From Perna viridis (lineage: Eukaryota), in assembly GCA_037379345.1 (NCBI GenBank), contig CM074519.1, positions 40,344,851 through 40,408,850 on the forward strand: a stretch of DNA of 64,000 nucleotides, given 5' to 3'. Of the stretch, positions 8,354-62,569 are shown one piece after another. The notes under the pieces were generated by a model. The model ran no database searches. It was not told the origin of the DNA and was given only the letters and a program-made list of their open reading frames with translations. Both the position numbers and the translations under genes were made by a program. Each line of letters begins with the position of its first letter. Position 1 is the first letter of the stretch.

Positions 8354-10192
8354 ATGGTCGTACATGTATCTGCAGCACTGTTACTAAGCTGTTACGCTAG
8401 TATTGTTTTAGCATCAGGTATGTTTAAGAAATAATTCGTGAAGGGGGTAGATTTTTACTCATTTTAACATGCGTACGGCATTTGTATTAGATTATGTAAC
8501 ACCGAGCGAAAGAAAAGATACAGCGCGCAGATGATAAAGGCGGGGTTGTACTGGCATATACTGTTTGACGATATGAGAACGTCATATTAGAATATATAAC
8601 TTATGTCTTTCAATATGTACATTTACTGTTTCGTGCTTAGTTAATTTCTATAAACAAAACAACCTAATTCGCATTCAGGCCATCCTTGTAAATTTATAAG
8701 TTTATTAAAACAGAAAAAAAACTTTTTACCATATCTATTGCACATTTGCTATTGGATTATTTTGATAAAAGACAAAAGAAAGTATACCATATTAAGATTT
8801 TTCCCGAGTCAAGTTCTAAGACACACATATACACACATTAGAATGTCAATATACTATTTCAAATGTTATGAACTGAAATGGTTTATGAATTTTTATACTT
8901 TGCATACTTCATAATACTTTCTCAAAAATGTGTGAACATAAATCATTGGGAGGACTTTATCAGGATGTCAAGGGAGACATTAACATATATTTTGCTGTAA
9001 ATTTTTCATTTTTTTTTTTTTTTTCGCTTTTTACTGTGCATTTTTTTTAAAGAAATCCGAAATCGCATACAAATATGTACCCTGAAAACCTTATTTTAAA
9101 TATTTTGGGTGAAAAAAAGCTATATTAGCCATTACAATCTCAAACAATATTGAAAGACAATTCTGTTTCAATTTCATTTTAGGTTTAAAAAAAACATTTA
9201 TGTAGATAAAATATATTAAAGATTGAAAAATGAATTTCTTTAAAAACATGAAGTCTATCAAAAAGTATATAAAATGCTCCAAATATTCTTAAATATATTC
9301 AACCATTTTCATAGTTTTTACATTAAGAACCTTTGTTGAATTAATTGAGGTCCCCAGGTGTGAATCGCAAAGAATTGCTTCATTGTTGTGAATGACTTCT
9401 TTTTGACTCCGCCTTAACAAAACGTTTAAAGGGCGCATTATTGTAGCTAAACTTTCAGCGGATTTGACCCACTTCCAATGTGACGGCTGACAATTGCGGA
9501 ACAAGACATGATTACCCTTCCTGAGCATCTGATGTCACATCCAGATATTTTTAGAAGTGGATGTTGTTTTTGCTTTAGTTTTTAAGTGATGTATTATTTT
9601 CCTTTTAATAGATTTAATTATAATTGCAAATGTATTTTATTATGTTCGCTACATTATATGTATAGTTAGTCTCTGTTTCCTGCTTTTATGTTTAGGTCTT
9701 GAATTTTGATTTCAATGTATCTGAGTCGTCCTTTGTTTAGGCTTTAGAATTTTTGGCCGATAGCAAGAAGAATTTGTTTCTTGCACATTTTCAGGAAGTT
9801 ACAGTTCTGGTCAATGTGGAGTACAGGGAAAATGGATAAACGACCTGGGATCCAACATGACCTTGACCTGTCAGCCTGATTCCTCTTCATCCGACGTCGG
9901 TAGCCTCGACGGCAGATACAACACGGCTGTTGGTAGGGCTGATGGCTACTACAAACTCTCTGGGAGGTACGCAAGATCAGGCAACGGGTTAAAGAACTGC
10001 CTTGTCGGATTTACCGTTACCTATAATAATAATGTCTATGGCAATTCTAATTCTACTGCCAGTTTTACGGGCAGTTATTTTGCTGTTGACGATACTATTT
10101 ACACACAATGGGTACTAGTGCGCCACACCAAACAAGAGAATATGTGGCTAAACAGTTTGCTTGGACATAACGTTTTTAATAGAGCGAAATAA
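8354..10192 (+). CDS. Secreted avidin/streptavidin-family protein (avidin-like 1, intact, 153 aa)
   Basis: Exon 1 8354-8417 encodes signal peptide MVVHVSAALLLSCYASIVLAS + G (GT donor, phase 1). Exon 2 9795-10192 follows TTTTCAG: GSYSSGQCGVQGKWINDLGSNMTLTCQ...GRYNTAVG...GFTVTY...STASFTG...TQWVL...NMWLNSLLGHNVFNRAK*. Matches avidin motifs CxxxGKWxNDLGSNM, GFTV, FTG, WxL and W...GxNxFxR. Confidence 0.92.
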
Positions 10193-10433
10193 AAAGATAT
10201 CAGATTGTTTGTTTGTTTGTTGTATGTTTGTTTGTTTTTTTTTTGTTTTTTTTTGGGGGGGGGGGGGTTGCGCCTTTTTTTCCTTCGTTCTCGTTTTTTA
10301 TATCCATTTATTAATGATACATAATTTGCTTAGCTCTGGTCTTCATATTCGACAGTGTGCAGAATGATAAACCGAAAAGTTTTGTGGATGAAATGAATTT
10401 TTTCAATACCGCAGGTGACATAATTTATTAATT

Positions 10434-10960
10434 GATAATTTTCATTCAGTATTGTCAACTTTCCTTTCATCTGTGGCAATATTCTTTTAGAACCTACGTA
10501 TGGTGTTTTTTATCACAACTAATACGCTATGCCAGAGCTTGTCCTTACTATACAGACTTATTGTATCGAGCTAGACTTCTTACAGTTAGGCTTCTGGAAT
10601 AGGGTTATGTTGCTACAAGATTGAAGGTATCACTACAGAAGTTTTATGGTCGTTATCATGAACTCGTCGATCGTTACGGTGTATCCGTCTGCACCATGAA
10701 AACGGATTTGTTAAACGTGCCATAGTTTTCCTTTCTCTTTCATCTATCCCGGACTTGACTTTACTGAGCAAGTCGTCGGCATTCCTAGAAAAGCATAGGA
10801 AGCTTACCCTACCGAGTTGCTCATTTACTTTTGTTACTTTGTATGTATTATTTTAGTTACTTCTTGTTCTTTGTTGTGTTTGTATGCTTTCCATATCTGA
10901 TCTCTGTCCCTGGATTACATTCTTTTGATTTCCGCTATAACCTTGGTTCCCTTGATTACT
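10434..10960 (+). mobile_element. Penelope-like (Naiad-type) retroelement 3' fragment
   Basis: Translates to IVNFPFICGNI...YGVF-SQLIRYARACPYYTD...KFYGRYHELVDRYGVSVCTMKTDL, then the family 3' tail ending GGTTCCCTTGATTACT. Confidence 0.85.
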
Positions 10961-24007: not shown

Positions 24008-24312
24008 TACCTATTCCTTCACTCTTATGAGGCTGACTTTATAGCTGATCTGATCCGAAAGAAAGAGTATCGTTTTGATAGATCCTTCAATCTCAGTTTC
24101 CGCTATATAGATGACGTATTATCTTTAAACAATCCTAATTTCGGGGATTTGATACATTGCATCTACCCCAAAGAACTTGGTCTATTCCAGATTTGACTGT
24201 TTATCAGCAACTATTTCTAGAAAAGCAGAGGACGCTTACCCTATTGGTGCACCTGGTTTAAGTTGCTTTGTATATATTATTTTGGTTATTCTATGTTCTT
24301 GTTTTGTGTGAA
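24008..24312 (+). mobile_element. Penelope-like RT fragment joined to 3' tail
   Basis: Encodes LFLHSYEADFIADLIRKKEYRFDRSFNLSFRYIDDVLSLNNPNFGDLIHCIYPKEL (catalytic YIDD), then jumps to tail sequence. Confidence 0.8.
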
Positions 24313-24834
24313 CGACAAAGTTGAACATCTTACAACAACAAAAAGCGTCATATATAAATGTTAATGATTTAAAATTTATCTTCATGTATGTACGTATGTA
24401 GCGTTTTAGATTTTAGTTAACACATTCTAGATATTGCTACAAAATGTATGTAAAAGCCATTCCAACTTCACATATACAATGCTTGCTAGATCATAGCCTG
24501 AATTATCGACAATCACTTAATCAATCCTATATTACTTAGTTGTTGCACCAAAAATACAGATTTTGATTTCTCCTTTTGTAGAAACTACCTTATCTTAAAA
24601 AAAACACATATAGACTGCGTTCCGTTTCTTGGTCTGCAGAATGTAGTATCACATTTTCTAACCTACATATTTTGTTTAGACAACTATGATAAATGGCCTC
24701 TTAAATCAATGTTTTATTTGATATGATTAAAAATTACTTTGTGAAAGATTGCTCTAAGCCGAATGACAAAAAAACATTTGCTGAAACTATATTTAGAGAA
24801 TAGTGGACTTATGGAATCAAACAATTCCGAATTT

Positions 24835-25195
24835 TCTAATTACACAGAAGAAGATATCAAAATGCTTGAATTTATGACCGATTATATTTATTTTTATGTG
24901 TTTTTCAACAGACGATAGGCAGTCCAAAGGGAACAAATTGTGCCATGCTACCCGCTGGCTTATTCCTAATCTTAGAGGACATTGGAAAGCGGAAAATGAT
25001 GACCCAACTGAACGACAGAGACAGTGATTTTTCATTCCGTATCTACCTACCTTTCATCTGTGGCAACATCCCTTCAGCATGAATTTAACGTATTTTTATA
25101 CCATTACTCAAACTTAGATTGGTGAAACTACGCGGACTACAACACTGGTCTTCTTATGATTAAGCTGTTGGAACAGGGTTATAAATGATTGGAGA
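24835..25195 (+). mobile_element. Highly decayed Penelope-like RT fragment
   Basis: Remnants of DIKMLEF-DNI, VFQQTIGxPxGTNCA and PFICGNIPSA. Confidence 0.55.
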
Positions 25196-25489
25196 TGTGG
25201 CATGATTACCAGTGATATAGTCATCCACCAAATACCTAGCATTATACAACTAAACTTCATCATCAAATATTTATTTTCAAGAAAGAATTGAGTAAACACA
25301 AATTATGTTTACAAAAACCTTATCAATTTAAACTGAGATTTAATCATAATGATATAGGAATAAAAGTGCTTTTAAAGGAGCACAATGTGTGCCCATCTGA
25401 ATTCCTACAACATGCCGATAAACTTTATCACCGATATTGCTCAATGTGTGAATTCATCACTACAAACGTTCTATGGCCGTTAAGAAATC

Positions 25490-26982
25490 AATTCATGAAT
25501 TATATCCAATGTTTATCATCAGAGGTAGACGTAAAAAATAAAAGCAGTAATAAGAACTATACTGCTATCACAGTCTCTAAAGACGATATCGTGAAAAACC
25601 ATAAATCTGTGATGTCCTCTTTTGGTCTTTCTACCAAAGACGATTATTGTGATATACCGTCTATGCACTGGATTCCTAAACTCTACAAGAATCCATGCAA
25701 ACAAGGCTACATAGCGGGATCTACAAAATGTTCCATCAAACCGTTTTCAAAACTTTAAAATTCTATACTCACAGCTGTATAAGATAGTCTCCAGTTCTTC
25801 CACGACACTTGTTACTCTAGTAGTGGTATTAATTCAATATAAATCTTGATAAACTCGAAAGATCCTCTAGAATTCCTGGATTCAAGACTGTTATCAGAAT
25901 ATCATAGCATTAAAACCTCTGATTTTTCAACACTGTATACTTCTATTCCCCATACTCAGTTAAATTCTGTCGATCTCAAAAACATCGTTGTTTTTCAGCA
26001 AAAAGATGGTGACACCTAGATACAAATATATAGTTCTTTGTAGAGATTCCTCATACTTTGTAAAAACAATACTTCCATATCATCTTCCAAAATTGCAAAA
26101 GGGAAGTTTTAAAATGCTGGAATTTTTTATCGACAACATATCTGTCCAGAGTGTTGATTGCGTTTTTCAAGAAACGGTCGGCATTCCAATTGGAACAGTT
26201 TGTGCTCCTATACTTGCTGACCTATTCCTTCACTGTTATTAGGCTGACGTTATAGCTGATCTGATTCGAAAGGAAGGACATCGTTTAGCTAGATCCTTTA
26301 ATTTCAGTTTCCGCTATATAGATGACGTATTATCGTTAAACAATCCTAGTTTCGTGGATTTGATACATCGCATCTAATCCAAAGATCTTGAAATAAAGGA
26401 TACTACAGACACTGTGAAATCAGCCTCATATCTTGACCTACACTTAGAAATGGTAAGGGAAAAACTATTGACAAAACTTTACGACAAACGTGATGAATTT
26501 TCGTTCAGAATAGTCAACTTTCCTTTTATCTGTAGCAACATCCCTTCAGCACCTGCGTATGGAGTTTTTTTTTTTTGTCACAACTCATACTCTATGCCAG
26601 AGCCTGTCGTAACTACGCAGACATTGTGTATTGCGCTAGACTTTTACAATTAGGCTTCTGGAAAGCTATGTTGCTACAAGATTGAATTCCTCACTACAGA
26701 AGTTTTATGGTGGTAATCATGAAGTCGTGAATCGTTACGGTGTATCAATTTGCACCATGAAAACCTATTTGTTCAACGTGTCATAGTTTTCCCCCTATTT
26801 CGTCTACCCTTGATTCGACTTTTTATGAGCAACATGGCGGGTGTTTATAGAGAAGAACAGGACGCTTACCCTACTGGTGCACCTGATCCATGCTCCCATT
26901 TTTAGTTGAGTCCATGTTACTCATTTACCTTTGTTACTTTGTATGTATTATTTTAGTTACTTTTGTTCTTGTGTTTGTCTGT
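25490..26982 (+). mobile_element. Penelope-like retroelement (RT at C-terminus, Naiad-type), 5'-truncated, frameshifted
   Basis: RT motifs across frames: HWIPKLYKNP...IAGSTKCS, DFSTLYTSIPH, GIPIGTVCAPILADLFL, FRYIDD, SYLDLHL, KLYDKRDEFSFRIVNFPF, PAYGVF. The ORF ends right after the RT thumb with no C-terminal GIY-YIG, consistent with the N-terminal-endonuclease clade. Multiple stops. Confidence 0.88.
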
Positions 26983-28096
26983 TAAATCGCGAAAACTAAT
27001 ACCCGTAAATATGTTCACTTGATATAATCCGCGAAAATTAGCAACCACTAAAATTGATACATTTACAGTAATACTTCCAAATAAATATATTATGATCAAA
27101 ACGAAATATTGACCAGTTGTTCATGCTAGTTTGCCCAATCATTGAAAGGAACAAGTATCCACTGACAGCTAATAAGCCGTTAAAAGTGTGTTGCAAAAAC
27201 ATTTCATAAAAAAAAATTCTAAATATCAAAATTAATCCTGTATGCACGTTGATTAATTGAACGCTTTATAGTTGAAATTTTGTAAGCTTAGTACTAATGC
27301 GATTGACACATGTTATTAAAAAAGAGAGTTGGCTATTTTTGGTTACACTATGAACTGAAAAGGTACTGTCAATACAAAGGAGATAGTCTAGACTGGCTGT
27401 TAAGTGTACATTTCTGCCTATTGACTGCAAGATAGCAATGAAGTACTTTCATGATTTGGGACATTTGACAATACCTGGAAGTTACATTATTTCTTATATG
27501 AAATGTTCCCCTCCGTCACAGACCAATGATAAATGTTAACAAAACAATAACCGCATGTTATAGACTCTCCTGTAGCAGTTCAAAAAATTGCAACGGTATT
27601 CAGTACGTCTCGCATGACAGTTAATTGCCACAGGTGTTGATAGGTGTTAGATTGTCTTAGTAACAACATTTTAATAGAAACAATTTAGTCAAAGTAGTCT
27701 TAAACTTGCGGATACGTTTTTGTTGACACATTTCAATATGTTTATATATCATATTTGAATTTGATTTTTGTTCCTGTGGCTTTTCTGTTTTGCATTTTTT
27801 TCTTTTTCTTACATGTTTAATTTTGTTTCATCTTTTAAAACAATTTTACCACAGTATTTACATATGATAAACATCGTAATCAATTTATGAGTAAGAAGCC
27901 TTGGGACGATTATACAAAATATGACTGATTAAAACATTCAAACAGTCGAAAAATTACCCATAAAGCCAATGGCAATCAGAGACATAACAAAAACTAAGAT
28001 AAAATACAAATTTTATTTTCCTTGTCTTCACATTAGATTGCGGACAACACGACTAGAATTACAATAATTCTTTCCGTAATGTTAAGGATATTTGTT

Positions 28097-28658
28097 TTAT
28101 TTTACCCTAATGAATACAGAGCTGCCGAAATGGGTGTTTTTCCACATGTCATTGTACTCAGTGCTCCTTGATAGAAGCCATTTTGAATGAATAGAATCTT
28201 CAGTAGTATAATGAATTCCTGTCAAACTTGCTACACTGGAGTCACCATCGTCGTTACCTATAGCAACCGAGAAGCCGAGAACAACATCACCCCCGACCAT
28301 AGTGTATCTACCCGAGAGGTCATATCGATGTATGTCGTCAAACTCGAATCGTCCAGTAAGGTATCCTTCCGTTGGTACAACATTTCCTTCCTGACACGTG
28401 AAAATCATCGAAGCACCTAAATCGTTTCTCCATTTCCCAGAAATGCCACAAGAGTCTGTAACAGAAATTTGCAGACAAATCAGCCTAATAAATTCAATGA
28501 ACAAAAGCTTTTGTTTACGATGCACATTTAAAAAAAAAACGAATCAACACCGGAATACGCAATAAAAAATGTTTAAAATGTATAATATACATACCGTCGC
28601 TAGGTGCGGTCGACCCTAAAAATGCCTGCAGCAGCAAAAACAGGATGACAATCATCAT
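28097..28658 (-). CDS. Secreted divergent avidin-like protein 2 (intact, 140 aa; most biotin-contact residues replaced)
   Basis: Exon 1 28658-28595 (MMIVILFLLLQAFLGSTAPSD + G, GTATG donor), 139-bp intron, exon 2 28455-28097: DSCGISGKWRNDLGASMIFTCQ...LSGRYTM...LGFSVAI...SLTG...SKWLLSR...DMWKNTHFGSSVFIRVK*. AATAAA at 28017-28012. Confidence 0.9.
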
Positions 28659-29182
28659 TTTAATGGAAGTCGTCTATGTATTTTAATTATTGCAAAAAGT
28701 ACTAGGTTAGGTTTATTTATAACATTATAAGTCAATTGTGACCTTCGATATCGGAAATCATTTGTTTTACTGACACGTATTTTTTAAGACAATGCATGTC
28801 ATTAAAAAGGCATATAATAGGAGATTTTATTTTCATAAAAAAGTACATTTAGCACATAGCATCAAATATTTTATAAAGATAAACAAATTTTCAAAGCGTA
28901 TTTGTTTAGAAAAATGTACGTGAAGCGCCCATGCATTTTAATTGTTTCTACTCTTTTCATACTTGTCATACAGACTATAATATATAACCTATATGGTGCC
29001 TTCTTCCTGCAAAATACCATTCCCTTCCTCTTGGGTGTTATCTACGTTAAAAATTATCCGCATGCTCTTATCTAAAAAAAAAACACTGCGGTTTATTGTT
29101 TGTATTTTGTTGTAAGTTTGTAAGTTTTAAATTGTAACAGACAGAGTTAACTAATACAATATACTGACAGCAAACATCTGGT
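28659..29182. promoter_or_regulatory. Putative bidirectional promoter between avidin-like 2 and 3
   Basis: Only 524 bp separate the two divergent ATGs. TATAAATA lies on the minus strand at 28721-28714, ~56 bp upstream of the avidin-like 2 ATG. Confidence 0.5.
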
Positions 29183-30120
29183 ATGATGGAAGGCTTTGTA
29201 ATACTGTTACTTGGGTGTTGTTCAAGTCTTGTTGTAGCAAAAGGTTAGTTAGAAAACTATATGTATTATATTTTGTGCTAAAAAAACACAATACAACAAT
29301 GAAATCACCTCAGAAACACAAATTTATAAACATGTCAGTTTTCTCGGATCACTCGTAATGCACAATGGTAACATCAGTGTAATACAGACTGTGTTTTCCA
29401 CTCTCAATAGTTTTGTGGCACTTTAATCATGTGTTACTTGTCAGTAATACTCAAAATGACTCAAAATGATTGATGAGTTCTTTCCTCTTTTGTATTTCTA
29501 TGTGCATTTAAATTTAAAATTAATATTTCTTAAATTCTGTAATTAATTTTGTGATTAATAAAAAGAGACCAATATGTCGAACCAATCACAGTAAAATAAA
29601 ACAAAAATGGAAAGAATGATTTGTTTTTTTTTTTTTTTTTTGTTTTTGTTTTTTTTTTTTTCAAAGACTACTATATATGGTTATATACATATGATTACAT
29701 AGATGTATTATTAACATTCGTAGGTTCGGGAACAAATAAATTAAGACAATGTAGAGTCGCTGGAAGATGGATAAATGAACTTAATTCAACCTTGGATGTC
29801 AGCCTGATTCCCTCACATCAAACGTGGGTATTCTTAAAGGAAGATATAAGACAGCAGTTGGAAGAGCTAAGGGTTATTACAAACTCTCTGGAAGGTACGC
29901 TAGATCAGGCACCGGCTTAAACAACTGTCTTGTCGGTTTTACTGTGGCCTGGAATAATCAGGTGTATGGAAACTCCAACTCCACAACTAGTTTTACAGGA
30001 AACTATTTTGCTGTTGACGACACTATTCACACACAGTGGGCTTTGGTATACCACACCAAGAAGGAGAACATGTGGCTAAACAGCTTAGTGGGGAATAACG
30101 CTTTCCGTAGACTAAAATGA
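29183..30120 (+). pseudogene. Avidin-like 3 (paralogue of avidin-like 1) with a single frameshift at ~29795; null allele, young pseudogene or assembly error
   Basis: Exon 1 29183-29243 (MMEGFVILLLGCCSSLVVAK + G). Exon 2 from 29724: GSGTNKLRQCRVAGRWINELNSTLD / frameshift / CQPDSLTSNVGILKGRYKTAVGRAKGYYKLSGRY...GFTVAWNNQVYGNSNSTTSFTG...QWAL...MWLNSLVGNNAFRRLK*. AATAAA at 30184-30189. Confidence 0.85.
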
Positions 30121-31609
30121 TAAAGATTGGAGTTGCCTCTTTTTGCGTTCTTATTTTTAAATAACGCAAATACTTGATTGGTCAATAAAATTTTCTTTTT
30201 GTTTTCTCTTTTGTACGTTTCATGCCTTAGATCAGATTACTTGATAATCAGTGGGTCAGATAACGACAGCCCCTCCCCTACGCACAAGAAAAACTCAACA
30301 GACTTATATGGGTAATAGATATAAGCATTCGAAAATGTTTTTGGATTCTAATAACTTTTATTTCCCCTTTCTGTTGGTGCTTCGATAGGATTCTTCCTTT
30401 TTTATTTGAATCGCAGTTGATAATTTTAAGCCTAGTAAAATAAAATACAATAATGCTTCGAGCTAGGATTCAACATTATGAAAGACAAAAAATAAAATTC
30501 AAACTTTTATTTCCGGTGTTTTTGCACGGAAAGCCAATATTGCCCAATATTTATGTGACTGGTTTATTATCAATTTTGTCTATATTGAATAATAATAACC
30601 ACTTTTTTTATATCATGATACTTTGTTGAGTTGATTGATATTGCCGAAATGTGATTTTGTTATAGGGATATCTTTGTGACTTGTGTCGGGGACTGCATTA
30701 CTGCTTCTTGACTATTATCGGATCACACTTGTAATACAACAGGTGCTGCTGGCGGAATAGAACATGCTTCCGAGGCACCTAATTTTGATCCCTTTATTGT
30801 AGGACTTGCTAGTGCTTTAGTTTTTTGTGTTACATCTTGTTCTTCTTATCTTCAGTTAAACATAGATTGTATTTTATTTGATTCGCTACCTTGTGTATTT
30901 TGGTCGTCTTGGTTTCCTGCTATCATGTTCCGGCCTTGTAAATGGATTTGTCCCATTTTTCACGCTTCGGTATTTGTGTGCCGATATTTACATTGCATCA
31001 AAAGACTTTGTCTTAATCCAACTAATTATTAATTAGAAACCACCAGTAGATCATTTAAAAAATCACAGAATAAAGTACATATAACAACTGTAATACAGTT
31101 AGATTCATTTCCGCTGCCTATTTGTTTTGTATTTTGTGTTTTATGTTGTGTTGTTCTGTGTCTGTTGGTTTCGTCTCCGCTTCTTTGAGTCGTATATGTA
31201 ATAAGCATGATTAATTTGGATTTTTGTAAATCTTTCGAAGGTTCTTGGTGTTGGTGTTCTCCCATCTTACATTTTCTTGAGATATCGGAAATGAAAGCTT
31301 ACATTGTACATAAATCATCATCAAACAGTGAAATTTAAAAAAGTAAAAAATCAAAAATGTATTAAAAGGAACAAAAAGCAGTTACTAAATCAGTGGATTC
31401 CAAATATGTAGGGTAATTGGAAATCGGAAGTTGAAAGTCAAATATCGTACTAAGAGAATTTAATCATTTATAAATTTTGAATCATATTCAATCTGTATCG
31501 TAAGCATTTGGTCAGTTACTGGCAATAGGTCCAAATTCGTTTCAGGTATGCGATATTATAAGGCTGCACTATTAACTCAATATTAATTAAACCTTCAACA
31601 CTGCTTGAT

Positions 31610-32320
31610 CATATTTCACGTTTGATAAGTCAAGAAGTGAATGAGCAAGTCCGACTCCACTAAAACATGGATCATGGAACAGGTGCATTGTTAGGGTAAA
31701 CGTCCTTAAATAGTTCATCGCGAATTGGAACCATTTCGAGTCTTACATCTTTCATTTTTGCATTGGCGCATAGGTGTCCTAGAAAGGTTAGAGGCTACGG
31801 CTTAAGAAGTCATCGTGTTTTGTCGTATAACTTGGTTATGAGTTTTCCTTTTCATTTGTCTCTAAGTGTAGGTCAAGATATGAAGCTGACTTCATGGGGT
31901 CTGTAAAATCCTTTATCTAATGTTCTTTGTGCTAGATGCGACATATAACATCCCCGAAACTACGATTGTTTAAAGACAATACTTATAAAGCGAAGACCGA
32001 GATCAAAGTATCCGGCTACGATGTTTCTTCTTTTGGATCAGATCAGCTGTATCCATCCTCATAATTGTAAAGAATTAGAAGATGATTTGGAATCATTTTT
32101 CCAAAGTATAGATAATCTCTACCAAGTACTATTTAATTTTTAGAGTAATAATGGACGATGTATAATTCTTTTGAGTAAGGATACCAGTATGGGGAATAGA
32201 AGCATGAAGGGTTGAAGATCATATGTCTTGATGTTATTATATTCCGATAATAATCTAGACTTGAGGAATTCCAGAAGATCTTTAATTTTATTTCAGGATC
32301 CACAATGAATTGATACCACT
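31610..32320 (-). mobile_element. Decayed Penelope-like RT fragment
   Basis: Reverse complement matches GINSLWIL...DLLEFL, IKTYD, SASYLDLHLE and KLYDK segments of the 25.5-27 kb copy. Confidence 0.65.
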
Positions 32321-32673
32321 ACATAGGAATAACTGCAACATATCTTTTCAATTGAAAAATAGATATATGATACTCTCTCATTAATAGGTAAAAAAAAATT
32401 TCCCAGATCATTTGAATATGCAGTTTATGCGTTTTTATGGGCAAAAATAGATATCCTAAACATATGTTTCTTGATTGTGTCTTTGGCCTAGAGAAAGTGA
32501 AAACAAACAACTTTGTTTTACAACACATTGATTTCAAACCTCATTATGTGTTGACAAATAGATAAATTTGACAAATTGTTCTCTTGCTTAACCAAATATT
32601 TTACGGGAGATATGTTAACACTGTAAATTCACTTATTTTATGTCTGTTATTGTACATGTGTAATTTTGTTTAC

Positions 32674-33528: not shown

Positions 33529-34347
33529 TCATTTTCCGATAGCACCGCCTCCCTGTCCGCCTTTGTTTTCTCTTGTAAATATTGCGCTTCCAAAATGTGT
33601 ATTCTTCCACATATCACAATATTCAGTATGTTTTGAAAAGAACCATTGAGTGTGAATATTGTCTTCAGAGGCATAATGAATTCCTGTCCAACTTGTGATG
33701 TTCGAGTTACCATGGTTGTTGCCAGTAGCGATAGAAAACCCGAGAATTCAGTCGCCGTATATCATCGTGTAGGAAACAACCATTAAAGAACCAAACTGGT
33801 TTGTCCATTTTCCCGAAACACCACAAGGATCTGCATTTGAAGGAAAAACTTAAAGTTATTTTGAAAATACGAAACCAAGGTAAATGCAAGGTAAACTTTT
33901 AAAAACGCCCGTTCTAGTGTGACCTACGTCCTTTGAAATAAAATGCTTTCTACATTTAAATAAGGTCTATGAGTGTACTAAATTTGGTCAGAATCTTTGT
34001 TATAATAGTGATAACAACGATGTTTCGGAATTAAAAGGAAAGAGAGTGACCTAGACCTTTGGCCTATGACATATAGGTTCGGCGGTTACGATTTAATTTT
34101 CGCGTATGTTTATTAATTATCGGTTGTTCTGAAATTTCCTGTAGTAATCATGAACTCCTAAAAGATATAGAGTAAGAAATGTTTGTACTCACATTTTTAT
34201 TAAATAAAAGACAAAATGGGTAAGATGAATTAGATTCCAAAGTCCAAGTCCAGAGTTTTATCAACTATGTAAATTAACAAACTTACCGTTACCAGCAGAC
34301 ATCACCAAGGTAGTTTGCAAAACGCAAAGCACAAATAGAGGCACCAT
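33529..34347 (-). pseudogene. Avidin-like 4 pseudogene (paralogue of avidin-like 2)
   Basis: Exon 1 34347-34287 (MVPLFVLCVLQTTLVMSAGN + G, GTAAG donor). Exon 2 33830-33529: DPCGVSGKWTNQFGSLMVVS[~30 codons missing vs gene 2]YTMIYGD*ILGFSIATGNNHGNSNITSWTGIHYASEDNIHTQWFFSKHTEYCDMWKNTHFGSAIFTRENKGGQGGGAIGK*. In-frame TGA at 33750-33748. Confidence 0.88.
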
Positions 34348-35384: not shown

Positions 35385-35830
35385 TACCGGTGCACCTGGT
35401 CCATCAACCCAGTTTTTAGTGGAGTCCGAGTGGCTCATTTGCTGTTGTTACTTTGTATGTATGATTTTAGTTACTTTATGTTCTTTGTTGTGTATGTCTG
35501 TTTTCCGTGTCTGGTCTTTGTCCCTGGATTGCATTCTTTTGATTACCGCTATAACCTTGGTTCCCTTGATTACTCTTTCAATTCATTGGCATTGCAATTG
35601 GAACAAATTGTAGTCCTCTACTCACTAGCCTATTTCTTCACTCTAATGAAGCTGACTTTATTAGCTGACCTGATCCAAACGAAGGAAGATCGTTTAGCAA
35701 GATCCTTTGATCTCAGTTTCTTTGCTATACAGATGAGGTATTGTCTTTGAACAATCCTAGTTTATGAATACATGACATTCACTCCAAAGAACTTAAGATA
35801 AAGGACACTACTGACACTATTAAGACAGCC
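35385..35830 (+). mobile_element. Penelope-like element: 3' tail followed by RT fragment (pseudo-LTR/tandem-type arrangement)
   Basis: Family tail at 35385-35578, then EADFIADLIQ-KE-RLARSFDLSF and KELKIKDTTDT remnants at 35625-35830. Confidence 0.7.
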
Positions 35831-39152: not shown

Positions 39153-42100
39153 TCAGAAATTTCCTCCCTGTGAATACTGATGCTCAACTTTAATTCCTCC
39201 CCACTGTAGAATCTGTTTGTCTGGATTCTCATCCCAGTCTTGCTCCAACTTGAGCTAAAAATACAGAGAAAAAAAATACATGTAAATACATTTGAAGTGG
39301 TAACTAAAGGTATTAACATACATGTATCATTGGGATTTAAAAGTATGTCATTACTATTGCTAAATGAGTATCTGATGCCTAGAATCAGACACAAGTCCTT
39401 CCAAAAAACCATCGTGGGCACAAATTTCTAATATGTATAGAAAGCACAGCATTCTTTGTAAGTCACAAATAAAAGAAATTCACATTTGTATCAATTTTTT
39501 TTTTTTCATTTGCAAGTGAAAAAGAAGATCCTTCCTTCAATATACATACTTCAAATTCATGTTAAAAACAATTATTAAGGGTAAATATCGAGAAATTTTC
39601 ACATATAACGGGGTTGACTGTTAACTGACCTTCAGATTTACAATTATAAAAGAAAATATAAGTTTGTTATGATTTTAGCTACCATAAATTAAGAAATTTG
39701 GCATTTGTGTTAGTATTGGTGGTTTGCAAGGATGCTCACCTATAAAGTAATAATGATGTAAAAAAATAATTTCCCTTACACTACAATAGTTACAATTTCA
39801 CAGTTTGCTCAATTATAATAAACGAGTCTCATTGTCTCTTCTGCTTTTGTAGTTTTATGTCCATCTTATTTTCAGGTAAAATATTTATGGCATAAATTTT
39901 TTTTTTTTGTCTTTGATTTTGAATGGCTGCAAATAAACGTTTGAATAATTTAACAATAAGAACCATCATTATTGTATGCAGATAATTTTTCTTTATAACA
40001 ACCTGAAAAGTTAACTTTCAAAATTTCTCATCAATAGCTTGGCTGTAAACAATATGAAAATCAACTTCTTGCAATTTTTTTTCTTTTTTTCACAAAACCG
40101 TACATCTACAAATGTGTATATAAGTACAAAAACACATCATTTATCTTCAAAATGAATAAAAAAAAGATGATAAGAAAATAATAAATCACAACCACCACCT
40201 AAAATCTATTAAAATCTACATCTGTATTTGTTACATGTAAATCTTGATTATATTGCATGGATTGTCTCCCTTAGAAATAAATCGCAAATCTTTTTTATAA
40301 ATTTCAGACATATATAAACAACATCAAGTAGCTTAGAATAGCATTAAAACAGGATATTGTTCTTAAACTTTCAGAAAAAAATACATATTGTTTTATATAA
40401 AATTTTAAGTTAAAGAAAAATCAAGTTCAATTCATAAGCGTGTGGTGGCAGTTAAAGGGAGATAACCCATGTCAAGCTACTCATGGAAAAGGAAGAAGTT
40501 AGTATTTCTCTAGCTTTTAAGCTCACTTACTCTACTGAAACTTTTCTGCATCTGCTATAGTCATAACAGAACAAGGCAGTGTTAATATTAATAATTATCT
40601 ATAGGAGCAAAGCATTAGGTCGTATGTCGTGGAGAACAGTACCTGAACTGGTCCATGGAATAAAAATTGGGACCGGTCATCGATCACTGATCAGTTTCCA
40701 ATCAGTCAAAGATCTGTCACACAACAGTCAATATATTTTATGGATTCTGTTGTTTTATTTTTCAATTTACACATTTTAACAGTAGATTAAAACATCAATT
40801 AACACTTTTCTTTTACATTTCTTTAATTTTTAACAGATCGTCTGTCATTTTGCATAAGAAAACTGCAATCAGATCAGTCACCTGTCATCAGTTATCTATC
40901 TGTCAGCTATCAATCAGTCAGTGGTCATCGATCTGTCAAATCATTGTGCAGATCGGTTCAGGGACTGTAAAATATTAATTAAACAAGCACTGCACAATCA
41001 CACAGGTTATTAATTAGTTACATGGTAGGGAAATTTAAAGATGGAGAAATTATTCTAAGATAAGAGAAACTTTCATTTCAGTACTGAAATTGACTTCAGG
41101 AATTATAGTGAACAGTTCCCACCATATAATATATTCACATTTGTTATTAAAAGTAGTGTTAAAAAATACAATCTAATTTTTTTAAGCAACACTTGCTTTA
41201 TCTAATACTTGATGAAAAACATTCATTGCCTCAGGCACTACTCAGGCAGATAAACTCAATTAAGTGTAAACATTTAGCAACAGCTATATTAGGTTGTAAA
41301 TTACAAACTGTTAGAATAGTAAGAGATTAATGAACACACAGTAATAAGCTACGACAATAGATTAACTTTTAATCATTGATACCTTTCTCTGTTTATGTCT
41401 TTCTATATCTTTCTGTTCCCACGATTTCTGTTTTAATTGGGCTTCTTTTGTAGCTGTTGAACCACATCCCCATACCTTCAAGGCACCAGAATCAATGAAT
41501 TAATAAAAAATCATGAAGAATTAAAGGGCAATATCAGTAAAAAATTTTGTTGTCATAATATTAATTATATTCTCTATGATTTGGTCATTTTATCTACTTC
41601 TTGGATAGCTAGATATTCAAGATATCATATCATGGGAAGATGTGATGTGAACTATGAATATTTTCTTACATTGTCCTCCCATAACAACTGGTGATATCAT
41701 ATATGAATAATTACTAAAATTTCTGTCATGTCAGATACCAAATGTCAAGTAGTCAAATACTCCAGCGGAATAATAGAGAAAAAGGTTTAGTAACTCTTGA
41801 AATTTGATTATTGTGAAACATAAACTGGCATTATTTAATTTCAACATCATAAAAAATTCACTAAGGCAGGTTTGTTATCATGTTGAAATTGAATAACTCG
41901 AGATGATATTTTGCGATGCATTATGAAATCTATACGTATAATTAACTAATAAGTGTGAATAACATACAATAACTGATGGAACGGGTCAGTGAAAAACATG
42001 CAATAACTGATGGAACAGGTCAGTGAAAAACATACAATAACTGATGGAATGGGTCAGTGAAAAACATACAATAACTGATGGAACAGGTCAGTGAAACACA

Positions 42101-45100
42101 TACAATAACTGATGGAACGGGTCAGTGAAAAATATACAATAACTGATGGAACGGGTCAGTGAAAAACATACAATAACTGATGGAACGGGTCAGTGAAACA
42201 CATACAATAACTGATGGAACGGGTCAGTGAAACACATACAATAACTGATGGAACGGGTCAGTGAAAAACATACAATAACTGATGGAACAGGTCAGTGAAA
42301 AACATCAACTATTATTACATGTTTTATCAAATTCATTTCACTAAGAAAAATTGACCAATCACTACAATCTACTATTACGTAATAATATAACATACAAAAC
42401 TACATCCCACTTCTTAGATTACCTCCATTTTATTTATCATACAGCTGACTCCATAATGTTCTAATCTGTCAAAATCTGAAGGGATGACAATGACTAGAGA
42501 TTTAGGGTCTTTTCCAACAAATATTCCCTTCCTCATGTCTCTGGAGTGTTCATTCCAGAGCACCATGGGACCTCCAGCTGCAATGCAAAAATAAGTGAAG
42601 AAGCACATTCTCACTTAAACGTTATGTCTCCCTCCTTTGAAAGAGAGATAAATACAAACAAATACCATACATTGTACTATTCTCTGAAAAAAATAATAAT
42701 TTGTGGAATATCTAAATCTGGTCTGAGCTTCATTAAAAAAATGCAAATGAGATATTCCTTAAATCCTTCAGTTTTCCCTAAAATCTTCCATTTCATGCAA
42801 TCTGACTTGTGAAACTTGGAGAGGATTGAAGGAAATTTATTTGAAGAATTTTTAGGATACAAGATTCAGAAGTTTTTGTGTCATTATTTGACTTTTTAGT
42901 TTATTTTGAAGGTCATTGTTTAGTTACCATGGATTTTATCACTTTTGTTGTCAGGGCCTTTCAGAGCTTACTTAAAGAGGTGTGATCTCTTTAACTATTT
43001 ACTATTTAAAAGAGTAATCAAGGGAACCAAGGTTATAGCGATAACCAAAAGAATGTAATCCGGGGACAAAGACCAGACATGGAAAACAGACATACACAAA
43101 AAAGAACATAAAGTAACTAAAATCATACATACAAAGTAACAAAACCAAATGAGCAACTTGGACTCCACTAAAAAATCGTATAAATAAATTTTATACGATG
43201 GTGCATACGTTGTGTTTCACCACATCTGTTCCTAATTCTATTATATAAGTACAAAGTATTAAGACAGTGCCATCTCATTGTGATTTGATCTAACCATAGC
43301 TGTAGAAGTAGTCATCTCAGTTTCTATATATCGGTACATCTTATCCTGACTATATGCAAATAGAAAGAAAAAAACATGTACATGTCTGTATTCCTTGCTT
43401 TATTAAGGAGATTTAAGATACAAATATAATAAACTCACAAACTAAACAATAAAGTTTACCTTGAACAACCCTGAAGACAGGAGTTATCTGTAATAACATT
43501 GTATCTGCTCCTCCAAATCTCTGAGTTCCCTCCCTTAAATGAAAAAAAAGAATATTTTGCTTTGATGATATTTGTTTAGCTTGGAATAAAGCCTGAAATT
43601 AGATATAAATAAATACATTGATTATGGTATACCAATATTTGATCAATTTGACAGGTTTTCTTGTTATTTTACTGTTCTAATATATTATAGCGAGTAAAAT
43701 AGTTAACTTCAAGGAAGAAAGCACTGAATGACACTCACTTGATGAAATGTCTAATGTAGTGAATTGGATACTTGAGGAGATTTAAACTTTCGCTTAAACA
43801 CATATTAAAATGACAGTGGTACAATGAAAAAATTAATCTGTCAATTTTGAAGAAAGTTCATTTGGCAATAGTCAAATGAAGTTAACTATTTCATTAGTTT
43901 ATACAATAGGAAAAACATTATATTTTATGTGTACCATACCTCCAGCCAGTATCCTGAGCAACACAGTATACATTCCTTCCTTCAAATGACATGAGTGTGA
44001 TCGTTGGACCATGATATGATGTCACATGATGTGTAAACCTAGAACAATTTTAAAAATTAACATTACTGTTTAATGCTTTATAACAATCAGCGTTTGTATA
44101 TCTTATCATTTAACACCGTTACTACTCATTTTTGATCAATTTAGAGCTGAAAAAAATTTCATGCAATAATTTACCTTCTCTCATCATTTACAGTTTTGCA
44201 GCAAAATTAAAGCAATCACATAATTCTCCAGACAGCTAAAACATTTTCTTACATGAACCTTATGCTTTAACTGTCAGAAGCAAATACCTCAATTCAGAAA
44301 ATAATGGAAAAACGTAAAAGATTGTAATCACAGGTTTGATTGGCATCTTAAAATACAATGTGTGAAAAATAAGGAATTATACCCCACATGCCTATATATG
44401 CACTCTCTCTCCGTAAACCAGAAAAGAGCATTTTTCGGACAAGAAAAATAGAAATGGATGATGCAATCTGACCAAAGACAGATGATCAACCTATAGAAGA
44501 GTAATCAAGGAAATTAAGATTCTGGTGGCTACAAATTGGCTTTCAATACAAGCAGTGTGGACATTTTTACAGCCATTCTGCAGATGGCTATCACTGGACA
44601 CTTTTGGTGCAAAAATGATCAAATACTAAGAACAAAAACAATGTGATGTATTCAGATGAAATTCATCAGTTGTACAAAATATTTACCAAATTAGAAAATT
44701 TCTGTGAAAATCCCATTCAAGCCATTATCCAATGTTTGAAGAAACCTGTTCTCCAAGCAACAAGACAAAATATTTTCTTTTAATTAAGCATTTCTCAAAA
44801 CAACAAGCCAAAATATTTTTTTTATTAAGTATTCTCCAAGCAACAAGCAAAAATATTTTTATTTAAGTCTCCTTCTCAAAAAATGGTTCCCTAAGAAAAT
44901 CCAAGCTTCTACTGCTACAAGCCAGGAGATGTCATCTAGACAACAGGCCTTAATCAATAATTTTTAAAGATGTCCCCCTTCCAAATCAGTTGAACCCTTG
45001 GACAGATTTCTGTTATAATCAATCCATTTTAAGCTCTTACTATTATTATTATTCATTCACCAAAGTTAGGTGGGAAATTCCGAAATCCGTAAAAACTGAA

Positions 45101-48100
45101 GGCCATTCAAAGGCCACAACTTATAATGATACAATGACAGACGCACAATCACATGGACAGACAAACAGATTGGGCAAACACATTATATCCCAACAACTTG
45201 TTGAATGACTAATTACTAATATCTGGATATACAAGGTTTTATGTTCAATGTGTTGTATTTCTGGACTTCCCTTGGTTTTTACATTAAATTTACATATACA
45301 TGTATAAACCTGCAATTATTACCTATTGAGAGACAGCCCATCTTCAGTACTGTTATACAATGAAGTCCAGCTCTGACATCTACTGAGACGAGCCTAATAA
45401 ATAAACAGTTTGATGAAGAAATTGTTAGGTAGAATTAATTTTTTTTCAATGCCTTTAGGATATTTCTTTTCACTATATACATTTTTACAAGAAGACCAGT
45501 AATGTGCAAACTAAGAAAACAGGAATTTTCATCAAAAGACATCAGATATTTAAAACTGTGTGAAAGGTGATTAAATGAAAATAGTTCTCCATTTAAAGTA
45601 TTTAAATCAAATGCCAGAGAAATTAACTGATTTACATTATTTTATGGACAAAAATATTATGTTTCAAGCAGTGAAAAGACGACAGACAATCTGTTCACAT
45701 CTTTACTCTATAAATAAAGATTATAAGGTCAATAAACAGTTAAGAATCAATCATAGATTTATAGAAGCCAATAATAATGACAATACTACTGCTTGATATA
45801 AGTAAAAATATACAGTGTAATGTACAGTGTAGATATAAGTAAAAATATACAGTGTAATGTACTGTGTAGATATAAGTAAAAATATACAGTGTAATGTACA
45901 GTGTAAATAAAGTGGTTTTTCATTAATTGATTTTCTGTCAAGGGAAAATTGCAAAAATATTTTTCATTTGTTCTGTAGAAACATATGAAAAAAATCATGC
46001 ACAAAAATATATATTTCCAAAATGTCCTAAACATATGGAAACATATTTCATATGATAAGAACAACAATGACAATGATAACAGGGTGATTTAACGAAAAAA
46101 ATTTTTTTTTTGCTGTCACATGAAAACTTTTAGCAAAGCTTACTTGGTAATATTCCCTCTTCCTTTCATGGAAACAATATCAGCATCCCCAAAAGTCATT
46201 TAGATGAAAAAACATAATAGGAGGTGCACAATGACATATGAAAAAGAATGTGTGAAAGTTTTATCAAATTCCATTCAACACTTTTAAGAGGAGCTGATGA
46301 TTAGAAGAATCTGTCCCTTGGTTAACCAATTAAAAGGTCAATTTTTTGCAACAGTAAACCCCAAAATTCATTAATATGAAAAAAAAAACAAAAAAAAGAA
46401 AGTTCTCAAATGGTTTCATCATGACCAACCATTTTTCCTAGTAACTAAAACTGTTTCCTAGAATATGACATAATTTAGTCAAAAAGTTTTACACAAAATC
46501 TGATAAAGTGACTTAAAATTTTAAATTCCAGACAAAAATACTGCATGAACACTATATACCTCCTTCTTTTCAAGAATTCCAAAAACAAAGCATAGCTAAA
46601 CTTACAATTCTCATTAACAGATTGAAGGATGATAGTAATGGATTCCTGACACCCCCACTGGTATCTTCCTCTTTCTGATCGAGGTGTGTATAACTAGCTG
46701 GTATTACTGTTGATAAAGCCCATAACATACCCATACTCATACAGTGCTTAGCTTGTTCAAATTTCTCCAACTCAGGTACTCTGGCTGTCTCCTAAAAAAA
46801 GGGCAAGTGGATATGATTCATCCTCAGATCTAAACTAATAAAAAGGGACTTAATTTTAATTTTTTTATGAAATTCTTGAAAAAAAAATATCATATTAGTT
46901 GAACAGACCTTGTTCATTAGTTGATTTAGGTGGCAAGGAATTTTGTCATTTTAAGAAAAAAATGTTTTGACAAGAGTCAAGTAAAATTTAAAATATACTA
47001 ACCTGTTCTGAAGGCATCTTACACCCTGTCAGGATTCTATACACCCAGTTGTGTGTCCCACAGCCCCAGGCAGGAAGTGTTATATACATGTACTAACATG
47101 TTCGGAAGGCATCTTAGACTCTGTCAGGATTCTATACACCCAGTAGTGTGTCACACAGCCCCAGGCAGGAAGTGTTATATACTAACATGTTCTGAAGGCA
47201 TCTTACACCCTGTCAGGATTGTATACACCCAGGTGTGTGTCCCACAGCCCAAGGCAGGAAGTGTTATATACTAACCTGTTCTGAAGGCATCTTAAACCCT
47301 GTCAGGATTGTATACACCCAGTTGTGTGTCACACAGCCCAAGGCAGGAAGTGTTATATACTAACCTGTTCTGAAGGCATCTTACACCCTGTCAGGATTGT
47401 ATACACCCAGGTGTGTGTCCCACAGCCCAAGGCAGGAAGTGTTACATACTAACCTGTTCTGAAGGCATCTTAAACCCTGTCAGGATTGTATACACCCAGT
47501 TGTGTGTCCCACAGCCCCAGGCAGAAGTGTTATATACTAACCTGTTCTGAAGGCATCTTACACCCTGTCAGGATTGTATACACCCAGGTGTGTGTCACAC
47601 AGCCCAAGGCAGGAAGTGTTACATACTAACCTGTTCTGAAGGCATCTTAAACCCTGTCAGGATTGTATACACCCAGGTGTGTGTCCCACAGCCCAAGGCA
47701 GGAAGTGTTACATACTAACCTGTTCTGAAGGCATCTTAAACCCTGTCAGGATTGTATACACCCAGTTGTGTGTCACACAGCCCCAGGCAGGAAGCGATTT
47801 ATACTAACCTGTTCTGGAGGCATCTTACACCCTGTCAGGATTGTATACACCCAGTTGTGTGTCCCACAGCCCCAGGCAGGAAGTGTTATATACTAACCTG
47901 TTCTGAAGGCATCTTAGACCCAGTCAGGATTGTATACACCCAGTTGTGTGTTCCACAAAACATATGTGGTAAGTTGTTATGGGTCCACTTTTTAAATTCA
48001 TCATACCCCAGTTCTTCATGAGGTCCGAACTGAAAACATACAGAAAGTTGAGCTTTTATAATAATGTATATCATGATAGCTGAACATCTGAGAGGCAAAT

Positions 48101-55904: not shown

Positions 55905-57005
55905 TGAGTGTCTGAACATTCACACCTCAGACACTCAGACAGTGACTGATCACTTACACTTCAGACACTCAGACAGTGACTGATTGCTCACACAGCAGAT
56001 ATGCAGACAGTGACTGAACACTCACACCTCAGAGTCACTTAGACAGTGACTGATTATTTACACTCAAACTTTAGGCAATCAGACAGTGACTGATCACTCA
56101 CATCTCAGACACTCAGACAGTGACTGATCACTTACACTTCAGACACTCAGACAGTGACTGATTGCTCACACAGCAGATACGCAGCTAGTGACTGAACACT
56201 CACACCTCAGAGTCACTCAGACAGTGACTGATTATTTACACTCAAACTTTAGGCAATCAGACAGTGAATGAGCACTCACACCTCAGACACTCAGACAGTG
56301 ACTGATCACTTACACTTCAGATACTCAGACAATGAGTGAACACTCATACCTTAGACACTCAGAGAGTGAATGATCACTTACACAGATAATCAGACAATGA
56401 CTGAACACTCAAACTTAAGACAATCAGACAGTGACTGATCACTCACACCTCAGACACTCGGACAGTGACTGAACACTCACACCTCAAATAGTCATAAAGT
56501 GATGGTACACCCACACTTAAGACAATCACAGATTGACTGATCACTCACACCTATGACAGTGACTGTTCACTCACACCTAAGATAGAGATTGACAGCGACT
56601 AATCACCCATACCTCAGACACTAAGACAATGACTAATCTCATACACCTCAGACATTCAGATAGTGATGATCACTCACAACTCAGAAAGTGACTGATCAAT
56701 CACACCTCAGTCAGTCAGACAGTGACTGAACACTCACACCTCAGACAGTGACTGATCACTCACACCTTAGAAAGTGACTGATCACTCACTCCTCAGACAC
56801 TCAGACAGTGACTGATCACTCACTCCTCAGACACTCAGACAGTGACTGATCACTCACACTTCAGACACAGACAGCAACAAATCAATCATACATCAGTCAG
56901 TCAGATAGTGACTGATCACTCACACTTCAGACACTCAGACAGTGACTGATCACTTAGACATTCATCTGTGACTGATCACTTAGACATTCATCTGTGACTG
57001 ATCAC
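55905..57005. repeat. Degenerate satellite, ~22-34-bp units with higher-order structure
   Basis: More than 30 variants of CAGACACTCAGACAGTGACTGATCACTCACACCT. Confidence 0.9.
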
Positions 57006-58159
57006 TAATAGAACTGATTGCTCTCTTGATATATCAGGTCACAAGTGTTGATAAAACTGCAATAAGTAATGACCATAGCTGAAGTTCAAGTTTGACCATA
57101 GTTGAAATTCAAGTTCATCAGACAAATTTTATCAACTTAACACATTCTCAATTATCAAATCTCATTTTATAATACTTTGAACTGCAATACTACTAAGGGT
57201 ATTTAAGGTATATCTATCAATGGAGTAATGATAAACTGACATTGAACCACACAATTATCTTATTTTGTGTTATTAATAATATGTTTACTTGTTCACTTTC
57301 TCTGGACTGCCACAGTACTGTCTATATCATATCTCATAATCAAGGTCAAATTATTCACATTTAGGTTATTTGAGCAGGGAAAATAATAAAGTATCACTAC
57401 TTGTTACATGTACAGTTCCCATTAAACATAGTAAGAAAAGGTTTTAGAGAAACTATGCCATGACAAAACATCAGAATCCCCTGAGAGAGGACTCAAATGA
57501 ATCCTCAGAAATAAAAAGCTTCACAGAGCACAGCATGATAAGACTGCAGTGGTCAAACCCTGAACAGTTGGAAGAAGTGTGGACACAATATTAGTTTTTG
57601 ACACACTTAAGCACAGGAACTTAAACTTCATTATGGACACAACAACTGGTTTGGACACTACATTGCACAAAGTTTGATATTCAAATAAAAATTTTCAAAA
57701 TCAGACCGAAAATAAACAAGATGCTCTCAAAAACCTGAATAGCTCGCTTGGTTTAATAGCTTTAAAAAGTTGAAGACATGGAAAACCTAAAAATGGTCAA
57801 ACACCTAAACACACCAAATTAGCACAGAAGATATAAGTCATGATACTGAACATTTAAGAATCGACAATAACAAAATATTTGTCTATTGAAAAATAACATA
57901 AATTTTCCATGTGCATAATATGTTTATTGCCAATTCTTATAAATTAATTTTAAAACATATTTTTATCTTTAAACATGAGAAAATTAGCTCTGAATTTAAC
58001 TGAATAGGGGCATGTCAATATTTTTTCATCCACTGAGATATAACAAAACTATTTTAACCAATCAGTATTTATCTCAAATTAATTTATTTAAACATAATCA
58101 TCATTCTACTGATGATAACTGAATAATATGCTAAAAGTGCAAAAAATCATTAAAAATGC

Positions 58160-62539: not shown

Positions 62540-62569
62540 GTGAGTACTGATCTCTAGAGTAAGTAGTAA

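Follow-up and report, generated by a model that had tools for sequence, protein, structure and literature searches.

A constrained avidin paralogue with a remodelled pocket beside a canonical avidin in a four-gene cluster of Perna viridis

The window analyzed here, a 64,000-nucleotide stretch of AT-rich animal DNA from Perna viridis (GenBank assembly GCA_037379345.1, contig CM074519.1, positions 40,344,851 to 40,408,850 of the forward strand), contains four avidin loci and no others, as judged by tblastn with two exon-2 frames as queries. Numbered 1 to 4 along the window, the genes alternate in orientation and in type (A→ ←B A→ ←B), type A comprising genes 1 and 3 and type B genes 2 and 4. At the center of the cluster, gene 2 and gene 3 stand head to head, and a first-pass annotation made from the letters of this stretch had proposed that their products form a natural hetero-oligomer. 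We lean instead towards regarding gene 2 as an old, constrained, secreted-type paralogue whose pocket has been remodelled and whose product assembles with its own kind. The elements of the cluster are listed below in window coordinates; X16 and X21 are public data sets described further on.

8354..10192, plus strand: gene 1, a type A paralogue of gene 3 with exons at 8354-8417 and 9795-10192; 153 amino acids, 9 of 11 core pocket residues, exon 2 net charge +3
28008..28096, minus strand: 3' untranslated region of gene 2, with AATAAA at 28012-28017; an X16 contig extends to 28008 and X21 molecules begin at 28021
28097..28455, minus strand: coding part of gene 2 exon 2, avidin barrel, from a PF01382 match and an AlphaFold2 model; whole protein 140 amino acids
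28456..28594, minus strand: gene 2 (type B) intron, 139 nucleotides, GT-AG, from splice-junction reads
28595..28658, minus strand: gene 2 exon 1, ATG and hydrophobic signal-peptide-like segment with phase-1 donor; RNA joint 28455-28595
28659..29182, no strand: ATG-to-ATG spacer, 524 nucleotides, containing both 5' untranslated regions and a read-free core, from the sequence and X21 reads
29183..29243, plus strand: gene 3 exon 1 (type A, canonical avidin), ATG and signal-peptide-like segment with phase-1 donor, from an RNA joint
29244..29723, plus strand: gene 3 intron, 480 nucleotides, GT-AG, from splice-junction reads
29724..30120, plus strand: coding part of gene 3 exon 2, avidin barrel, frameshifted in the window by a 7-nucleotide gap; PF01382 match, 11 of 11 pocket residues
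29795..29796, plus strand: site of the 7-nucleotide gap of the window in gene 3, filled in all four public runs examined
33529..34347, minus strand: gene 4, a type B paralogue of gene 2 with exons at 34347-34287 and 33830-33529; 90 nucleotides are deleted in frame after 33772, and a TGA stands at 33748-33750

Each of the four genes has a hydrophobic exon 1 followed by a phase-1 intron. Means of 2.4-3.5 over 10-residue hydrophobic windows make exon 1 signal-peptide-like by hydropathy, and the products may be secreted. The product of gene 2 matches the avidin/streptavidin family PF01382 at 40.4 bits against a cut-off of 24, and those of genes 3 and 4 match it at 55.3 and 31.7 bits. Its AlphaFold2 model, with a predicted local distance difference test (pLDDT) score of 93.6, is an eight-stranded barrel like those of the family, and the nearest structure found by Foldseek is tamavidin 2 (PDB 2zsc), at a template modelling score of 0.81; a search of the ESM Atlas returned avidin clusters only. 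Gene 2 also shares W108 and W120 (streptavidin numbering) with the family but differs from it in the pocket, in a 3-4 loop that is three residues shorter, and in an identity of only about 30% to the solved avidins.

The pocket was scored at 11 positions, N23, S27, Y43, S/T45, W79, S88, T90, W/F92, W108, L110 and D/N128, which we take to be the core biotin contacts; the numbering was read from an alignment with streptavidin and transferred via protein P0046. Gene 3 keeps all 11 residues and gene 1 keeps nine (the exceptions being W79Y and T90A), which by their residues places both with the high-affinity avidins. Gene 2, which does not belong there by this measure, keeps four (N23, S88, W108 and L110), as well as L25, and has S27A, Y43F, W79I, T90A, W92L and D128S, with the equivalent of S45 absent. 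The description of gene 3 as canonical once repaired is thus correct, whereas the statement that gene 2 has lost its own pocket residues is true of seven of the 11 positions and not of the pocket as a whole. Type A would be a secreted canonical biotin scavenger. In gene 2, most of the hydrogen-bond donors to the ureido group and two of the three inner aromatic residues appear to have been swapped for small aliphatic ones beneath a shorter lid loop, and such a protein would probably be a poor biotin binder that either accommodates a different, more hydrophobic ligand or acts as a scaffold. Gene 2 has two Cys and is without an N-glycosylation sequon. The mature type A chains (9795-10192 and 29724-30120) have three Cys, an odd number, and the unpaired one might join subunits or whole tetramers, as is reported for chicken AVR6 (PMC1282572; here and below, statements credited to published papers rest on passages of those papers).

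In a tree of 42 proteins, from which P0004 was excluded as a fragment, genes 1 and 3 form one sister pair (100/97) and genes 2 and 4 another (99/98). The ratio of nonsynonymous to synonymous differences (pN/pS) between genes 2 and 4 is 0.29 (95% interval 0.20-0.41) over 88 codons, at a synonymous divergence (dS) of about 2.2, which is near saturation; for genes 1 and 3 the ratio is 0.28. Because I79, the altered 5-6 loop and a T-H-F-G motif are common to gene 2 and P0004, an ENA protein that is an allele of gene 4, they predate this near-saturated duplication, and the remodelling of gene 2 is old. Type B also has its own constrained interface, with 17 of 21 interface residues identical between genes 2 and 4 as against 34 of 67 residues elsewhere (p 0.02, in a post hoc comparison in which the interface positions are strand positions). 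Gene 2 would most likely self-oligomerize, its W120 capping the pocket of a type B neighbor as in every tetrameric avidin. A word-index search with gene 2 gave no candidate, and an exhaustive search gave 49 matches, none above 63% identity, of which the best was the gene 4 allele.

Four of the 24 public runs listed, X1, X6, X16 and X21, were compared with positions 27800-30400 of the window. X1 is possibly the source sample, X16 carries another organism label and is the only one used here of the probable transcript assemblies, ten of which contain 0.27-0.34 of the words and three next to none, and X21 is a raw bulk RNA run of which about 19% was read. In all four, seven letters are inserted behind 29795, which restore the frame of gene 3 and add one Glu. 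The insertion accounts for the whole depth in X1 (32.1/32.1), X6 (84.2/84.2) and X16 (9.82/9.82) and for 14 of 52 reads in X21, where six more reads are clipped at the gap and clipping is indistinguishable from deletion among the 38 not counted with the insertion. The gap in the window is either an assembly error or a null allele of the sequenced animal, and intact gene 3 is a natural allele in the public data; its intact protein was not found among the database matches of our protein searches. Both predicted GT-AG introns are spliced in X21 (89 junction reads for gene 2 and 34 for gene 3), X16 has one spliced contig per gene (depth 17.1 and 9.82, respectively), and stranded X21 reads reach depths of 110 for gene 2 and 58 for gene 3 on opposite strands. 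On this evidence of filled gaps and spliced transcripts, a fixed pseudogene was rejected as an explanation of gene 3.

Both genes are thus active, and their transcription runs outward from starts less than 1 kb apart. Minus-strand RNA extends to about 28681-28756, where eight X21 molecules on the gene 2 side end at 28681, and plus-strand RNA is present from bin 29018-29104 onwards; X21 reads are absent from bins 28757-29017 of the spacer between them. TATA-like words lie 63 nucleotides upstream of the gene 2 ATG and 202 nucleotides upstream of the gene 3 ATG, such words being common by chance in AT-rich DNA. Alleles at 28646-28665 in X21 and X6 replace the second Met of gene 2 with Ile and an Ile of the signal-peptide segment with Leu, and leave the first ATG unchanged.

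That gene 2 is a relaxed copy heading for loss beside a gene 3 pseudogene is suggested by the frameshift of gene 3 in the window, by the deletion and stop of gene 4, and by the X21 reads lacking a counted insertion. It is largely refuted by the filling of the gap in every run, the splicing of both genes, the low pN/pS within both pairs of paralogues and the age of the features common to gene 2 and P0004, and we consider it extremely improbable. A second alternative, namely that gene 2 still binds biotin, if less tightly, and acts as a releasable carrier or a buffer in the manner of chicken AVR2, draws on the residues that remain (N23, L25, S88, W108, L110 and W120) and on the warning of Laitinen et al. 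that residue changes are unreliable for judging binding (PMC8033661). On the other side, seven of the 11 core contacts are altered in gene 2, W79 and W92 among them, whereas N23A, S27D and S45A suffice to make a streptavidin subunit non-binding (PMC4047826) and W110K together with W70R nearly abolishes binding by avidin (PMC8033661). AVR2 itself still binds biotin, its structure being that of a biotin complex (PMC1282572), and the gene 2 pocket is far more altered. We hold this alternative to be very unlikely.

The arrangement of the two genes had been one argument for a hetero-oligomer. The first-pass annotation was accurate in placing divergent ATGs 524 bp apart: they stand at 28658 (minus strand) and 29183 (plus strand) with 524 bases between them, and the layout is present in X1, where one contig covers 27800-29608, and tiled in X6. 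Synonymous divergence is alike in both pairs of paralogues (41 of 89 same-residue codons for genes 1 and 3 and 24 of 45 for genes 2 and 4; Fisher p 0.47), and a single tandem duplication of a tail-to-tail A/B pair would give the order A→ ←B A→ ←B with no loss needed. Most simply, then, the junction of genes 2 and 3 would be a by-product of block duplication, and because one such duplication would yield the head-to-head layout, the layout is not upheld as an argument for a heteromer. A junction of accidental origin can still have turned into a shared promoter. Scans of metagenomes for the pattern of the gene pair in relatives gave 231 and 172 matches, none of which was confirmed.

The retained tryptophan had been another argument. 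As had been recognized, the motif DMWKNT of gene 2 aligns with streptavidin W120, the equivalent of avidin W110, and its retention was read as a sign that gene 2 serves the pocket of a neighbor in a heteromer; this second step does not hold. In an alignment of 43 proteins (105-210 amino acids, most near-duplicates dropped and P0004 added), W120 is present in 42, including genes 1-4, and in all eight with six or fewer core contacts, such as VDI60964, both counts being biased in that relatives were found via gene 2 or an alignment containing it and the eight pocket-poor rows include alleles and isoforms. The 1-2 interface consists of three residues, W110 among them, and mutating this Trp destabilizes homotetramers (PMC1082904). 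As far as the residue itself can tell, W120 is as compatible with a homo-oligomer that has acquired a new ligand as with a heteromer, and with 42 of 43 relatives and every pocket-poor one keeping it, its retention was rejected as a mark of hetero-assembly. By contrast with the Lys in its place in the non-binding fibropellin of sea urchin, the Trp of gene 2 suggests that this side chain still packs on something.

The charge argument fared in the same way: the counts stand and the conclusion falls. The estimates of about 16 Asp/Glu against 10 Lys/Arg in exon 2 of gene 2 and about 17 Lys/Arg against 6 Asp/Glu in repaired gene 3 are right, gene 2 having 16 and 10 (isoelectric point, pI, 4.97) and gene 3, in the haplotype of the window, having 17 Lys/Arg and 5 Asp/Glu, to which the insertion adds the Glu that makes six; read with X at the gap, gene 3 exon 2 has five acids, 17 bases and a pI of 10.07. 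Interface positions were placed by offsets between avidin and streptavidin numbers that we take to be correct. At the 22 positions so mapped from the avidin list of PMC1082904, N57 and R59 of the variable loop being omitted, there are none of the 16 acids of gene 2 and one of the 17 bases of gene 3. Among the 11 coding variants listed, at least three remove a Lys of gene 3, namely K>E at 29738 in X6 and at 29836 in X6 and X16, and K>N at 29850 in X6, X16 and 17 of 34 X21 reads. Nor is type A always strongly basic, the net charge being +3 in gene 1 and +1 over the core in P0002 of Mytilus galloprovincialis. Because the acids and bases lie off the listed interfaces and the charge of gene 3 is polymorphic, net charge gives no interface signal and was rejected as one. 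The contrast of acidic and basic proteins would be mainly a property of the outer surface; in the chicken family, acidic AVR2 (pI 4.7) and basic avidin (pI 9.7) are each tetrameric alone (PMC1282572).

Several observations weigh against a gene 2 that assembles with itself. The upstream regions of the paralogues are no more alike than shuffles, the best pair, genes 1 and 3, being equalled by 10 of 200, and because no likeness is detectable there, block duplication falls short of proof; an ancestral head-to-head pair followed by separate outer duplications is a possible alternative history. The excess of identical interface residues between genes 2 and 4 fits a common partner as well as it fits self-assembly, the W120 counts have the bias given above, and the homo-oligomer of gene 2 and its ligand are both putative. 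The transcripts of genes 2 and 3 co-occur, at a gene 2 to gene 3 depth of about 2:1 in X21 and 17.1:9.82 in X16, a co-detection at bulk level in one RNA run and one contig set. The 3-4 loops are oppositely charged, with four Asp/Glu and one Arg in gene 2 as opposed to no Asp/Glu and four Lys/Arg in gene 3, one of these four bases being the polymorphic Lys at 29850, and 3-4 loops are apposed across the 1-2 pair, that is, in the 1,2 arrangement (PMC4047826). Finally, a 2+2 hetero model in ESMFold2 passed weakly, at a score of 0.36 against 0.00 for the best of three controls. This model contained two copies of gene 2 and two of the last 107 residues of gene 3, with the first two strands missing, and the comparison was with the three controls. 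Of 157 solved complexes, 116 reach the pass mark, as do 2 of 215 mismatches; at scores of 0.60 or less it is reached by just 18 of the solved complexes and by both of those mismatches. Between runs, at least 89% of contacts are the same, and the partner pLDDT is at least 63.

Of the proposal of co-expressed, charge-complementary subunits in a hetero-tetramer, the bulk co-detection, the opposite 3-4 loops and the weak 2+2 pass therefore survive, and the layout, W120 and net charge do not. In its selected form, gene 2 would be a 'dead' or second-specificity subunit whose W120 completes the gene 3 pocket across the 1-2 interface and whose acidic 3-4 loop faces a basic one, both chains entering one secretory pathway from genes driven by a shared divergent promoter, for which the outward starts a few hundred bases apart around the read-free 28757-29017 would speak. 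Retention of the A/B pair through a duplication is in keeping with this, and F125 of gene 2 and the small A109 of gene 3, presumably in contact as in streptavidin, offer a possible knob-and-hole. However, the 2+2 pass may reflect likeness to solved avidin tetramers, which are abundant among structures; the gene 3 chain was truncated, and the pLDDT of gene 2 is higher with gene 3 replaced (77) than with gene 3 (64-73). Genes 2 and 3 are identical at just nine of the 22 interface positions and at 42 of 116 residues (36%), polymorphism affects three lysines of gene 3, one of them among the four loop bases, neither gene 1 nor P0002 is strongly basic, layout and W120 are accounted for without a heteromer, and bulk RNA is not same-cell evidence. 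We therefore regard a selected hetero-tetramer as unlikely, and we are correspondingly doubtful that genes 2 and 3, sharing a single divergent promoter, encode a biotin-binding and a pocket-remodelled subunit that pair through oppositely charged 3-4 loops into the first avidin hetero-tetramer known from nature, a divalent or two-ligand scavenger comparable to engineered dead/live streptavidins.

Mixing could also be unselected, the co-secreted products being mainly homo-oligomers with a minority of functionless mixed tetramers, for example of one A-A and one B-B 1-4 dimer. Co-detection, the weak 2+2 pass and the presence of W120, T/S123 and a hydrophobic residue at 125 in both genes are compatible with this. 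The 36% identity and the divergent 1-4 interface are not in its favor, and distantly related avidins do not combine well even in fusion proteins: when avidin was forcibly fused to streptavidin (about 30% identity) or to AVR2 the product was largely fragmented, but not when it was fused to AVR4 (PMC3105096). This, too, we judge distinctly improbable.

Self-assembly of a remodelled type B protein is the reading that we continue to prefer. Known systems resemble the cluster in part. The chicken cluster of avidin, AVR1-7 and BBP-A likewise consists of tandem paralogues of opposite charge and differing affinity (PMC1282572, PMC1082904), with pI values of 4.7 for AVR2, 6.9 for AVR6, 9.6 for AVR4 and 9.7 for avidin (PMC1282572), and BBP-A and AVR-A face towards each other (PMC1282572, PMC1082904); the AVRs are, however, about 80% identical to avidin (PMC3105096), compared with 36% between genes 2 and 3. 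In sea urchin fibropellin, the avidin-like domain of a mosaic protein, which does not bind biotin, W110 is replaced by Lys and W70 by Arg (PMC8033661), whereas gene 2 encodes a stand-alone, two-exon, secreted-type barrel of 140 amino acids with W110 kept and Ile at W70. Engineered 'Dead' streptavidin (N23A, S27D, S45A) in mono- and divalent heterotetramers shows that a non-binding subunit can spare the site of its neighbor, but the interfaces are identical between Dead and live chains, which assort at random on refolding (PMC4047826), in contrast to the nine of 22 matching positions of genes 2 and 3.

Opposite charges within an avidin family are thus already known, as are animal avidin domains that do not bind biotin and engineered tetramers of dead and live chains. 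Among the open-access matches listed, subscription journals not being covered, there was neither a study of a mussel or bivalve avidin nor a natural avidin heteromer; 'avidin' in PMC10137854 and PMC8217771 refers to reagent use and not to a mollusc avidin, and PMC13425791 contained no mollusc passage. In mytilids, secreted avidins whose pockets have been rebuilt appear to persist for long periods (genes 2 and 4 and the group of VDI60964). Such proteins would be natural cases of the avidin barrel being moved to another ligand, and they are small and directly expressible. A true heteromer of genes 2 and 3, for which the evidence is thin at present, would be a natural counterpart of monovalent and divalent streptavidin with orthogonal interfaces, and of practical use.

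The closest named relatives of the cluster are hypothetical proteins of M. galloprovincialis, at 68% identity to gene 1. That species resembles P. viridis in having near-canonical avidins of type A (VDI60389 and VDI60390) along with pocket-poor ones (VDI60962 and VDI60964). VDI60964, which keeps W120 and two of the 11 core contacts, matches gene 2 at 41 of 108 residues without being its orthologue and is recorded on a different contig from VDI60389 (54 kb and 137 kb, respectively). Together with P0010, P0014 and P0059, P0061/P0062 (VDI60964/VDI60962) form a second pocket-poor group (100/100 in the tree) with two or three of the 11 core contacts, W at position 43 and W120 kept. An independent origin of the two pocket-poor groups was not shown by the tree comparison, in which one origin with genes 2 and 4 was not rejected (p-AU 0.254). 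Two other ENA records, P0003 and P0006, are near-canonical avidins close to the types of the cluster with long tails that contain a hydrophobic stretch and are possibly membrane anchors.

The 90-nucleotide in-frame deletion in gene 4 removes 30 residues, from the end of strand 2 to the middle of strand 4. P0004 has the same deletion and has Cys where the window has TGA. In X21, clipped RNA reads (27 and 20) match gene 4 at 28 of 30 and 26 of 30 letters and have residues of the P0004 type, the deletion lying outside their coverage. Read with X at the stop, gene 4 is predicted to have six strands and the W120 helix (pLDDT 70.5). Gene 4 could be a six-stranded mini-avidin that is expressed and has preserved its interface strands, or else a transcribed pseudogene.

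Dispersed copies of a broken repeat element flank the avidin genes at 24009-26983, 31807-32322, 35385-35830, 53928-54799 and 10433-10960; the element looks reverse-transcriptase-like by eye, and two of its frames gave no Pfam match. Tandem repeat arrays with units of about 60-180 bases occupy 41955-42305, 46993-47957, 55907-57006, 58297-58943 and 60732-61371. Towards the end of the window, an open frame on the plus strand (62188-62550) encodes the beginning of a GTPase domain of the Ras/Rab type (PF00071, 34.8 bits).

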